This document shows positions 28,324 through 39,892 of a stretch of DNA of 64,000 bases, piece after piece. The DNA is from Cryomorphaceae bacterium. GTDB lineage: Bacteria > Bacteroidota > Bacteroidia > Flavobacteriales > UBA7430. The position numbers and the translations under genes are program-made. The stretch is taken from the NCBI GenBank assembly GCA_019649675.1, contig BOWN01000001.1, positions 209,979 through 273,978 on the forward strand, written 5' to 3'. The notes below the pieces were generated by a model, which was not told the DNA's origin, ran no database searches, and saw only the letters and a program-made list of their open reading frames with translations. Position 1 is the stretch's first letter. The number at the start of each line of letters is the position of its first letter.

Positions 28324-31089
28324 TTAAGGAATAAATCTCTTATCTATCTTCCCATTATCGTATATGTAAAAAAGAATTATACCTCTATTGTGTACTTTTT
28401 GTTCTCGACCAAAAATATCAACCATTTTGATTAATTTGTAATCTTCATCACTTATTTCATTAATACCAATACCATCATCATAGTCACAAGCATCACCTTC
28501 TCCATCTTGATCAATATCAATTTGATCAAAATTACTGATATCTATACAGTTATCTAATTCATCACAAACACCGTCACTGTCTATATCTGAGATACAATTA
28601 CCATCACAGTCATAATAATCTTCAGCATACTCACATGTTCCATCATCTGTTGCTAAAGAATCATAGTTACAAGCGATATCATCAGTACATCCTACAACCT
28701 CTAATTCATCACATACACCGTCACTGTCTATATCTGAGATACAATTACCATCACAGTCATAATAATCTTCAGCATACTCACATATTCCATCATCTGTTGC
28801 TAAAGAATCATAGTTACAAGCGATATCATCAGTACATCCTACAACCTCTAATTCATCACATACACCGTCACTGTCTATATCTGAGATACAATTACCATCA
28901 CAGTCATAGTAATCTTCAGCATACTCACATATACCATCATCTGTTGCTAAAGAATCATAGTTACAAGCGATATCATCAGTACATCCTACAACCTCTAATT
29001 CATCACATACACCGTCACTGTCTATATCTGAGATACAATTACCATCACAGTCATAATAATCTTCAGCATACTCACATGTTCCATCATCTGTTGCTAAAGA
29101 ATCATAGTTACAAGCGATATCATCAGTACATCCTACAACCTCTAATTCATCACATACACCATCTCCATCAGTATCATTTAGGCAATCTCCATTACAGTCA
29201 TAATTTGTTTCTGCATAAGTACATGAGCTATCATCATCTGTTGCTAAAGAATCATAGTTACAAGCGGTATCATTAGTACATCCTACAATCTCTAATTCAT
29301 CACATACACCGTCACTATCTATATCTGAGATACAGTTACCATCACAGTCATAGTAATCTTCAGCGTATTCACATGTACCGTCATCTGTATTTACATCTGA
29401 GGAGTAATTACATGCTATCGAATCCATACAACCATTAATGACTAGAACATCACAAGAACCATCATTTACATTAAAGAGTTCGTTGTACTCTATATAAGCA
29501 GGATTTGTACATCCATACCATATACAAGTTCCATTATTAACGTTTGCTAAAGAATCATAATTATCAGCACCTGATTCAGTACAACCATCAATTATTGGAA
29601 TACAAGAATCATTGTCAGTATTTGCTTCAGAATTATAATTTAATGCAGTTGGATTAGTACAACCATAAATAAATGGCTCACAGGTGCCATCATCAGTATT
29701 TGCTAATTGATCATAATTATAAGAACCTTCATCTGTACAACCTAAAATATATGGAATACAAGAACCATCATCTATATTAGCAAGCGAATCATAATTTAAT
29801 GCCCATGAGTAGGTACAGCCTTGAATAATTGGTACACAAGAGCCATCATCAGTATTTGCTAAATAGTTAAAGTTTAAAGACAAACTATCAATACAACCTT
29901 GAATTACCGGCTCACACGAATCATCATCTGTGTTGGCGAGTTCTGAATAATTAAAGGCTGTTGAATCTGTACAACCTTCAACTACTGCCTCACACGAATC
30001 ATCATCTATATTTGCTAGTGAATTATAATTGTATGAATTAACATCTGTACAACCAAAAACAGACGGAATACATGATCCATCATCAGTATTTACAAGTTCT
30101 TCATAATTTAATGCTGAAGGATCTGTACAACCTTCAACAATAGATTCACAAGCCCCATCATCACTATTTGCTAATGGATTAAAATTAAATGCTGTTGAAT
30201 CTGTACAACCAAAAATGGTATAAATACAGCTTCCATTATCTGAAGTTGCTTCAGAATTATAATTATCTGCATTTTCATCTGTACAACCTTCTATTAAATA
30301 GATACAAGAACCATTATCAATTGTAGCTTCTGAATTATAATTTACTGCTTGATCATCTGTACATCCATATGTAGCATTTAGTTGTGAACATGAACCATCA
30401 TCTACATTTGCATCAATAGAATATTCAGCATAATCAAAGTTTGTACAACCATAAACTATAAGGTTTGAACATGAACCATCATCAAGATTTGGAATACTCT
30501 CTAAAGCAGTGATACTATTGGACATTGGATCATAATCCCAATACTCTAAGTATGCTTCATCAGAACAACCCTCTACAATCAATGTTAAACATGAACCATC
30601 ATCTGTATTTGCTTCAACATTATATTCAAGATAATTTACATCTGTACAACCTAATTCTACTAATGTGATGCATTGTGTTTCATCAGAAGAATTCGCATTA
30701 ATATCATATTCTAAATAATTATCATTCATACAACCTTCGACTATTTGTGTAATACACATTTCGTTATTAGGCGTATTTGCTTGTTCGTCATATTCTAGAT
30801 AATTTATATCAAGACATCCCTCAATTATCAGAGTTAAACAAGATGAATCATCAGTATTTGCTTCTTGATTATACTCTAAATAGAGAGGATCTGTACAACC
30901 TTCAAATACTTCGTTAATACACATTTCACTATCAGATGTGTTTGCTTGTTCATCATATTCTAAATAATTAATATCTAAACAACCTTCAATTACCAATATT
31001 AAACAAGATGAATCATCAGTATTTGCAAGTGCATTATATTCTAAATAGAGTGGATCTGTACAACCTTCAAGTACTTCTGTAACACACAT
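28324..31089 (-). CDS. Giant Cys-repeat surface protein, fragment 7 of 7 (C-terminus with T9SS-type tail; gene span 28324-39892)
   Basis: About 17 GCTD..A.NY....AN.DDGSC repeats, six 49-aa units with [10 protein letters not shown] (TSP3-like), tail [37 protein letters not shown]. Confidence 0.85.
   Translation of the reverse strand: [921 protein letters not shown]
28545..29440 (-). repeat. Tandem 147-bp (49-aa) near-identical coding repeats, about 6 units
   Basis: The anchor ccgtcactgt recurs at 28571, 28718, 28865 and 29012 (period 147), with diverged units at 29159 and 29309. Each unit encodes [47 protein letters not shown]. Confidence 0.9.
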
Positions 31090-31262
31090 TGAAGCATCAG
31101 ATGTATTTGCAAGTGGATTGTATTCTAAATAATTTAAATCAGTACAACCTAAAACAACTTCTGTCTCACACGAACCATCGTCAGTGTTAGCAATAGGATT
31201 GTACTCAATATATGTTAGATCTGTACAACCATAAACAATAATAGTTTGACAAGCGGATTCAT

Positions 31263-31499
31263 TTAATGTATTAGCTTGGGGATTATATTCAAGATAATTT
31301 GCATCTGTACACCCGAAATCAATTCAGTTATACACATTGAAGAGTTAAATATGTTAGCATTTTCGTCAAACTCTAAATAATTAGAATCCATACAACCAGA
31401 AATTGCAATAGTTAAACATGAACCATCATCTGTATTTGCTTCAAAATCGTATTCTAAATATTCCGGATTAGTACATCCTTCAACTATATTAGTAAACAT
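31263..31499 (-). CDS. Giant Cys-repeat surface protein, fragment 6
   Basis: [22 protein letters not shown] and [16 protein letters not shown] repeats. Frame changes on both sides. Confidence 0.75.
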   Translation of the reverse strand: [78 protein letters not shown]

Positions 31500-39240: not shown

Positions 39241-39417
39241 AGTACAACCAAATATCTCATAATCACATGAACCCATTATCAACATTAGCATCTGCATTAT
39301 AGTTAATTGCAGATGGATCAGTACAACCAAATATCTCATAATCACATGATCCATCATCAATATTTGCTGCAGGGTTATAGTTAATTGCATACATATCCAT
39401 ACAACCGAATATATCAT
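38599..39417 (-). CDS. Giant Cys-repeat surface protein, fragment 2 (module B1)
   Basis: [40 protein letters not shown]...[21 protein letters not shown]. Its first ~50 aa are an out-of-frame read. Confidence 0.8.
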   Translation of the reverse strand: [272 protein letters not shown]

Positions 39418-39892
39418 CTATTATATCTTCTTGTGAACAAACAAAACTATAGGATGCTGCTAATGCAGGAAGAGTCCCATTTACAACAAAACTATTCATG
39501 CCGGCAAAAGATAAATCTACATCATATAAGGAATTGCCATCAACAAACTGAAAATACAATTCATCTCCTGATACAGCTCCATCTAATTCTGGTGTAGATG
39601 TATCGTCTCCCCAAACAGCAAGTGATTGTTGACCACCAACTAAATCATCTAAAGATAGAGAGGCACTTCCAAGAATTAATCCAGAAGAATTTAATGCAAC
39701 TAAATAAGGATCTTCTGAAGATATTGGAAGATTATCAATAACACTTGAGGTTAAAAATACTGTCATGTTTACTCCTGTATTTCCTGTAAATTCTAATGGG
39801 AAAATACAAGAATCATCTTGAGCATTAGTGGGGATAATAAACGTATTGAAAAATAGAAATAATCCAATAAATTTTTGTGTAAAGTTTTTCAT
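39263..39892 (-). CDS. Giant Cys-repeat surface protein, fragment 1 (N-terminus: signal peptide and module A1)
   Basis: [25 protein letters not shown], then [19 protein letters not shown]...[23 protein letters not shown], then the first Cys repeats. Confidence 0.85.
   Translation of the reverse strand: [209 protein letters not shown]
39344..39814 (-). repeat. Near-identical ~470-bp intragenic duplicate, copy A1
   Basis: Same sequence as 37357-37827 and 36640-37110. The anchor tgtcatgtttactcc sits at 39761, 37774 and 37057 (offsets 1987 and 717). Confidence 0.85.

Follow-up and report, generated by a model that had tools for sequence, protein, structure and literature searches.

Giant repetitive surface proteins are a known kind in flavobacteria. 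SprB and RemA of Flavobacterium johnsoniae are giant surface proteins of the type IX secretion system (T9SS), and MpIBP, the ice-binding adhesin of Marinomonas, is a giant adhesin that is rigidified by calcium and secreted by a type I system. Fibrillar adhesins are long surface proteins in which a stalk of tandem domains projects non-stalk modules from the cell (Monzon et al., PMC8286594, PMC9210967). We analyzed a 64,000-nucleotide (nt) stretch of DNA, here called the window (positions 209,979 to 273,978 of contig BOWN01000001.1, assembly GCA_019649675.1, deposited as Cryomorphaceae bacterium), in which a string of minus-strand open reading frames (ORFs) at 28324 to 39892 encodes tandem copies of a small two-cysteine repeat. 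With moderate confidence, we favor the reading that this is one gene for a secreted cell-surface fiber of ~412 kDa from an uncultured marine flavobacterium; the six frame changes that interrupt it would be insertion or deletion (indel) errors of the assembly, and its product would be exported by Sec, probably pass the outer membrane and resemble a fibrillar adhesin. As a giant repetitive flavobacterial surface protein it is of a known kind; its stalk unit is unnamed, widespread and tied to the hinge of perforin-2.

Like the fibrillar adhesins, the giant protein has a stalk of small tandem domains that would carry non-stalk modules outward: the repeat occurs 102 times, with about 75 copies in consecutive order. 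It differs from them in its stalk unit, a disulfide mini-domain of 26 to 27 amino acids (aa) instead of an Ig-like or similar domain of ~100 aa; in having no known adhesive module; and in its anchor, which is putative. With SprB and RemA it shares the order Flavobacteriales, a repetitive chain of several thousand residues, a signal peptide and a C-terminal element. Unlike them, it has no repeat found in Pfam and a tail that matches none of the sorting-domain types A, B and C, and nothing points to a role in gliding. Pfam and NCBIfam scans of the protein reported neither SprB repeats (PF13573) nor a type B sorting domain. The likeness to MpIBP and to the calcium-binding epidermal growth factor-like (cbEGF) arrays of fibrillin is one of concept, namely, ~100 small tandem modules that are highly acidic and probably stiffened by bound Ca2+ so as to reach far from the surface; the folds differ, MpIBP takes the type I route, and the Ca2+ site of the mini-domain is putative.

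Seven open reading frames that read as one gene

The ORF listing of the window contains seven minus-strand ORFs in this interval: 39263 to 39892, 38599 to 39417, 37884 to 38633, 32089 to 37779, 31484 to 31894, 31263 to 31499 and 28324 to 31089. A first-pass annotation, made from the DNA letters, had proposed that they are pieces of one protein with a single signal peptide at the 39892 end, and both proposals held. In a stop-to-stop map of the three frames, the open segments of the minus strand overlap end to end. Repair of six indels of 1 or 2 bases joined the seven pieces into one frame of 11,568 nt (3,855 codons) with no internal stop. All six frame changes fall within repeat units, and in each case the unit that is cut resumes in the next frame. 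Internal ORF starts sit in conserved motifs; the 1,896-aa ORF, for example, begins at the Met codon of the module motif GNTGVNMT. A signal-peptide-like start is confined to the first ORF, so that the whole gene has one signal peptide and one nonrepetitive C-terminal tail. By inspection, the first 25 aa have the basic n-region, hydrophobic core and small residues at -3 and -1 of a Sec signal peptide, and in relatives the module that follows begins at aa 23 to 29, right after a similar leader. The region matches proteins CM15mP23_03090 and CM15mP23_03080, encoded on a contig of 617 kb in a "Cryomorphaceae bacterium" metagenome-assembled genome (MAG). We conclude that the seven ORFs are almost certainly one gene for a single giant protein.

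The six frame changes are most likely sequencing or assembly indel errors rather than gene decay, because the same kind of lesion breaks core genes across the window; the argument is strong but indirect. The proteorhodopsin gene just upstream is split in a run of A residues that has five A where six are needed. Also broken are the genes for AcrB (at least four pieces), an outer membrane efflux protein (OEP; two pieces) and a GH30 hydrolase (at least three pieces), and those for HtrA, lycopene cyclase and carotenoid synthase are truncated. Gene calls are unreliable across the whole contig. Regions of fragmented genes were noted at 2564 to 6578, 10369 to 11862 and 13188 to 14356.

The two-cysteine repeat and its relatives

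The repeats were counted with a profile built from the units themselves. The 23-aa core, xxGCTDxxAxNYNxxANxDDGSC, is a C-x18-C element to which a linker of 3 to 4 aa is added. Successive units start 26 aa apart in 49 cases and 27 aa apart in 22, and the corresponding DNA periods are 78 and 81 nt. All 85 units of length 23 share G3, C4 and C23 without exception, and A16 is nearly invariant. In the last six units there is a third Cys, each of these units being fused to a three-Cys insert that resembles a thrombospondin type 3 (TSP3) repeat. The first-pass annotation had described the repeat differently: its length of 32 to 33 aa was wrong, its estimate of 80 to 100 copies was just below the actual count, and its statement that each unit has exactly two Cys applies to the bulk of the units and fails for the last six. 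Within the 78-nt array, odd and even units alternate in their identity to a reference copy (about 65% and 73%), which indicates a super-repeat of two units (52 aa) in which a TDP type and a TNP type take turns.

A model of five repeat units was predicted with AlphaFold2, using disjoint paralogous blocks as the alignment. It had a pLDDT of 92.1 and almost no regular secondary structure. Each unit probably contains one disulfide, and the earlier suggestion of an extended stalk with a single disulfide in every unit is reasonable and consistent with this confident model.

On no part of the protein did a match to Pfam-A (2025 copy) or NCBIfam 20.0 reach the cutoff of the model. Pfam matches to T4_Y03C, C8-3_MUC4, Fn1_2, DUF7361 and others were short and subthreshold and were rejected for these reasons. 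No EGF model matched the protein in these scans, and the units have two Cys in 23 aa, as opposed to the six Cys and three disulfides in ~40 aa of an EGF-like domain. When the repeat profile was compared with the sequences of the Protein Data Bank (PDB), it matched only perforin-2/MPEG1 (human, E of 1.3e-6; mouse, E of 1.4e-4). A Foldseek search of the PDB with the five-unit model likewise returned only MPEG1 (25 columns, root mean square deviation of 0.6 Å, 64% identity), at a nonsignificant E of ~2, the element being very short. By profile and by fold, the match is to MPEG1 residues ~332 to 352. Ni et al. (2020, PMC6989145) describe this stretch of perforin-2/MPEG1, located at the hinge that separates MACPF from P2, as a truncated EGF-like domain. 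The hinge (PDB 6u23, 6u2j and 6sb3), which is the only solved structure for a counterpart of the repeat, is a two-Cys element of 21 residues, comparable to the repeat consensus GCTDxxAxNYNxxANxDDGSC; it occurs in a single copy in an animal pore-former, whereas the giant protein has 102 tandem copies in what would be a bacterial surface stalk. The view that the repeat belongs to no named family was therefore correct for Pfam-A and NCBIfam and overlooked the perforin-2/MPEG1 counterpart. A literature search on the motif string DDGSC returned nothing relevant.

An exhaustive search with the repeat profile returned 15,037 cluster representatives at an E of ≤1e-3 and 2,439 at an E of ≤1e-30 (clusters defined at 50% identity). 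Named carriers include Flavobacteriales MAGs, a Candidatus Taylorbacteria MAG, the haptophyte Chrysochromulina parva and Synechococcus phage S-CAM3. Proteins of >2,100 aa with 30 to 34 copies are present in the haptophyte alga (P0141) and in Candidatus Taylorbacteria of the candidate phyla radiation (CPR) (P0138), so that the range of the unit extends beyond Bacteroidota. In the T4-like cyanophage S-CAM3, a virion structural protein (NC_031906.1, 36382 to 37932) has two degenerate copies, VYGCKDSSANNYNPYAN... and VYGCTDTLATNYNPSANVNQGC. Among the 149 best repeat-protein representatives, 28 have a type A sorting domain at the C terminus, and transmembrane-like and dockerin-like ends also occur; PF18962 is present in 39 of the 120 best small repeat proteins. 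Given these varied C-terminal ends, the two-Cys unit appears to behave as a general extracellular spacer or mini-domain. The search also yielded proteins of 3,837, 4,426, 4,548 and 6,618 aa, and the cluster of the last includes members of 7,325 and 7,469 aa.

The mature protein has ~3,830 aa, a mass of 412 kDa and a pI of ~4, and its residues include 688 Asp and Glu, 411 Asn, 249 Cys and 11 Lys and Arg. It is a polyanion, because outside the tail 680 Asp/Glu stand against 3 Lys/Arg. Lys and Arg together make up 0.2 to 1.5% of residues in flavobacterial relatives, compared with 9.7% in other genes of the window. Since the relatives show the same depletion, it appears to have been selected in the family and not to be an accident of one sequence.

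Modules and calcium loops

The six modules of ~125 aa described in the first pass were recovered as Cys-to-Cys modules of ~124 aa starting at aa 29, 242, 690, 929, 1091 and 1298. Three of them hardly differ from one another, two more are similar and the remaining one is divergent. AlphaFold predicted module 1 as a seven-strand β sandwich with one short helix (pLDDT 95.8, pTM 0.88). The module matched nothing in Pfam or NCBIfam, and no recognized adhesive domain was found in it.

When species-representative genomes were scanned with the module alignment, 35 loci were identified, all in MAGs or single-cell genomes of marine Flavobacteriales. Three of these loci, in other assemblies, are uninterrupted frames of >3,470 aa with 60 to 94 repeats that run off the 10-kb flank. 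The homologue P0398, of 7,469 aa, combines a signal peptide with 4 modules, 149 repeats and 10 TSP3-like loops, and its C-terminal domain is of the TIGR04183 type. Such intact relatives lend further support to the view that the six frame changes are errors. A word-indexed homologue search returned no protein longer than ~1.75 times its query (648 aa for a 370-aa query, 90 for 46 and 579 for 331) and was unusable for judging gene size.

The six TSP3-like units of 49 aa noted in the first pass were also confirmed, with a DNA period of 147 nt that recurs six times. They carry the loop D(I/T)D(S/G)DGVCDEL and, together with one canonical TSP3 loop, make seven loops in all. Compared with PDB sequences, the C-terminal query matched cartilage oligomeric matrix protein (COMP; 3fby) with an E of 7e-14 and thrombospondin-2 (TSP-2) with an E of 2.4e-11, in multiple aligned stretches; those of COMP fall for the most part in the final composite unit and in the canonical loop next to it. 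Pfam PF02412 (TSP_3) scored 18.7 bits on the tail segment, against a cutoff of 25 bits, and gave no match at an E of ≤1 on the 921-aa ORF. With its DxDxDGxxDxxD loops, paired flanking Cys and similarity to TSP and COMP, the block is of the TSP3 type, as in the type 3 repeats of thrombospondin and COMP (PDB 3fby and 1yo8). Unlike those repeats, only its last unit is canonical, and the six 49-aa units are hybrids of a two-Cys repeat and a shortened TSP3 loop.

Proposed fiber, alternatives and neighboring genes

The giant protein is best read as a very long polyanionic surface fiber, stapled by disulfides, with six modules at its far end in the manner of a fibrillar adhesin. Its surface display, its orientation with the C terminus at the cell, T9SS export, the disulfides and a long-reach adhesin role are what we infer. 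The protein would be exported by Sec through its N-terminal signal peptide and would then probably pass the outer membrane, its C-terminal end being kept at the surface as in relatives with a genuine T9SS sorting domain. From the cell outward, the short basic tail would be followed by the TSP3-type calcium-binding block, the stalk of ~75 units and a distal head of 1,400 aa. In this head, the six β-sandwich modules would alternate with short runs of mini-domains and might serve as multivalent binding heads; such a binding role is a guess, since the module has no significant fold match. If each unit adds 1.5 to 2.5 nm, a figure guessed from other small disulfide modules, a stalk length of 150 to 250 nm would result. 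The polyanionic chain should be repelled from the anionic cell surface, bind Ca2+ and Mg2+ from seawater and resist trypsin-like proteases.

The results that weigh against this reading concern the tail, the modules, the junctions and the internal duplications of the gene, and we take the tail first. The first-pass annotation had called it a T9SS-type tail, and this assignment did not survive: whether searched as the whole C-terminal ORF or as isolated tails of 96 and 49 aa, it gave no match at an E of ≤10 to the models of type A cargo (TIGR04183 and PF18962) or of types B and C (TIGR04131/PF13585 and NF033708). As positive controls, five homologue tails matched TIGR04183 with E values of 1e-8 to 1e-15, and the score of P0398 was 48.2 bits (cutoff, 23). 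Among homologues with the N-terminal module in common, two kinds of C-terminal end occur, namely, this TIGR04183 domain and a conserved short tail, HPNDxxxLVRVVNMLGQEVx7-8GxxLLYLYSDGSVEKxIK, of which the present tail is a divergent member; the same tail type closes nine homologues. The short tail and the type A domain hold the same position in proteins with the N-terminal module. Alignment of 10 short tails with 9 type A domains by hhalign was weak (probability of 23%, E of 8.7e-4), covering 22 columns over the "..VxxxLGQEV" strand. A search with the 46-aa tail, limited to hits of ~1.75 times the query length, found only unnamed fragments of ≤90 aa. No gene for T9SS machinery turned up in the window, where no search aimed at such genes was made. 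The protein sequence shows no visible LPXTG motif, lipobox or transmembrane segment. The T9SS is usual in the order to which the Cryomorphaceae belong. Because relatives with the same layout carry a genuine type A sorting domain, T9SS export may reasonably be supposed for the giant protein, from its family context and not as a property shown for the protein itself.

An alternative that we consider unlikely, though not negligible, is that the giant protein is indeed one secreted chain but does not serve as an adhesin and is not T9SS cargo; it could be, for example, a released or loosely attached polyanionic matrix, a cation-sequestering protein or a protective coat. The failure of the tail with all T9SS models would suit such a protein, as would the lack of an adhesin-like fold match for the module, whose best matches in the PDB and BFVD (E of 0.034 and 0.006; TM of <0.4) were not significant and were dismissed as generic β-sandwich noise. 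An extremely negative net charge with many Asp/Asn loops is in keeping with it too, and a repeat that occurs with transmembrane-like and dockerin-like ends, in phage virions and in perforin-2 looks like a generic spacer. However, the tip modules, stalk and C-terminal element together match the pattern of fibrillar adhesins, and the architectural twins of the protein carry genuine T9SS sorting domains. A slightly smaller chance attaches to a misassembled or chimeric locus, in which the assembler joined or miscounted paralogous repeat genes and the true length or number differs. The gene contains internal duplications of 474 nt at 99.6%, 791 nt at 95% and 1.26 kb at 89.5% identity, and relatives have several paralogues per genome (four loci come from MAG Co_bin_775_strict, for example). 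Yet there is exactly one signal peptide and one tail, the order of signal peptide, modules, repeats, TSP3 block and tail is that of the intact P0398, most repeats are just 60 to 75% identical in DNA, which is enough for unique placement, and other assemblies contain the ORFs of >3,470 aa mentioned above.

We consider it very unlikely that the locus is a decaying pseudogene in which the six frameshifts are real mutations and the full protein is no longer made. Six frame changes within 11.6 kb might suggest as much, and loss or variation is common among giant repetitive surface genes. In homologue searches no independent close sequence spanned any of the six junctions (for junctions 4 to 6, no relative exceeded 55% identity), which leaves room for real frameshifts in the strain; the two closest loci from other samples, on pilon-polished long-read contigs, are fragmented themselves and therefore could not settle the question of frame. 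Nevertheless, an equal density of frameshifts in the proteorhodopsin, AcrB, OEP, GH30, HtrA and carotenoid genes implies either decay throughout the genome or an error-prone assembly. Moreover, no nonsense substitution is found in 3,855 codons of an AT-rich gene, and the repeat consensus, including all Cys, is fully retained downstream of every shift. Phase-variable expression, with short runs at the junctions acting as slipped-strand on/off switches, has hardly any likelihood: the indels do lie in or beside short homopolymer or dinucleotide runs, and surface proteins are typical contingency loci, but the runs are of only 2 to 5 bases and known contingency tracts are far longer, six simultaneous "off" switches in one gene would make no regulatory sense, and housekeeping genes carry the same lesions. 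Programmed frameshifting was rejected along with phase variation on account of the short tracts and the lesions in housekeeping genes.

For the favored reading of one gene for a fibrillar-adhesin-like fiber, the least certain points are what the module and the tail do and the exact copy number, which could be an assembly product because of the near-identical internal duplicates of up to 474 nt. A broader proposal is possible, and we put it forward tentatively as something that may well prove wrong: that the 21- to 23-aa two-Cys unit represents an ancient unnamed superfamily of extracellular mini-domains, found in marine Bacteroidota, CPR bacteria, haptophytes, cyanophage virions and the hinge of metazoan perforin-2, which planktonic flavobacteria have polymerized into Lys/Arg-free polyanionic fibers of >100 nm and export by a shortened, unrecognized T9SS signal of ~46 aa. 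The short basic tail, which replaces the type A domain in otherwise similar proteins, is a candidate for such a minimal signal. With a hidden Markov model of the unit, a large block of marine "dark" protein could be annotated, ~15,000 clusters at 50% identity that have no model, and these marine proteins would be linked to the perforin-2 hinge. In error-prone long-read MAGs, strings of ORFs on the same strand may hide one 400-kDa surface protein that annotation has split into "hypothetical proteins." A 412-kDa protein nearly free of Lys and Arg is a candidate means by which a planktonic flavobacterium with proteorhodopsin might reach and hold particles or algal surfaces.

Table 1. Features of the giant gene and of the genes downstream (window coordinates)
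Feature	Coordinates	Strand	Description
Whole gene	28324..39892	-	Stop codon included; 3,855 aa after six indel repairs
Signal-peptide-like N terminus	39818..39892	-	aa 1-25; by inspection; in-frame stop codon 12 nt upstream
Module 1	39437..39808	-	aa 29-152; Cys-to-Cys β sandwich; GNTGxNMT, WGDDxxTxExDG and FQxVDG motifs
Module 2	38797..39168	-	aa 242-365
Module 3	37450..37821	-	aa 690-813; 98% identical to module 1
Module 4	36733..37104	-	aa 929-1052
Module 5	36253..36618	-	aa 1091-1212; divergent copy, 32% identity to module 1
Module 6	35626..35997	-	aa 1298-1421
Short two-Cys repeat runs between modules	36016..39412	-	3, 12, 4, 1 and 3 copies at aa 161-235, 368-683, 822-922, 1061-1083 and 1217-1291
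Main stalk	29371..35619	-	aa 1424-3507; ~75 consecutive two-Cys repeats, one interruption
Stalk spacer	32143..32394	-	aa 2499-2582; 84 aa, nonrepeat, Cys containing
Six 49-aa composite units	28552..29439	-	aa 3485-3780; two-Cys repeat plus extra Cys, then TSP3-like calcium loop
Canonical TSP3 repeat (one)	28483..28551	-	aa 3781-3803
Basic C-terminal tail	28327..28464	-	aa 3810-3855; 46 aa; 8 of the 11 Lys/Arg of the protein
Frame change 1	39272..39274 (site 39274)	-	+1, extra G; GGG versus GG in intact sister repeats
Frame change 2	38605..38608 (site 38607)	-	+1, extra T; TTTT, where TTT would restore the frame and the sister peptide TTVWFVEYDEN
Frame change 3	37951..37954 (site 37952-37951)	-	+2; AT surplus in TATAT
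Frame change 4	32095..32099 (site 32095)	-	-1; T missing in or beside a TTT run
Frame change 5	31491..31496 (site 31492)	-	-1; A missing, TTA ACT read as TTACT
Frame change 6	31309..31314 (site 31310)	-	-1; T missing, GGT TGT read as GGTGT
Small frameshifted gene	~27690-28215	-	Signal peptide plus one module
260-aa Cys-rich protein	26784-27566	-	One copy of the two-Cys repeat
CotH-kinase and lamin-tail-domain protein	22897-26655	-	1,252 aa; downstream of the giant gene

Just downstream of the giant gene, three genes on the same strand (22897 to 28215) encode secreted proteins that share parts with it (Table 1). No intrinsic terminator was found between the giant gene and the genes that follow, a result that is uninformative for Bacteroidota. 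The three downstream proteins end in an element of ~70 aa, GWNMIGY...(Y/F)(W/L)PE(W/F/Y)xFNGIGxLxPGxGYQ(I/V)K, which has no Pfam match and also precedes the short tail in nine homologues. Directly upstream, at 41229 to 43847 on the plus strand, lies a cluster of proteorhodopsin, β-carotene dioxygenase (blh) and photolyase-like genes, in which the one-base deletion that splits proteorhodopsin is near 41350.

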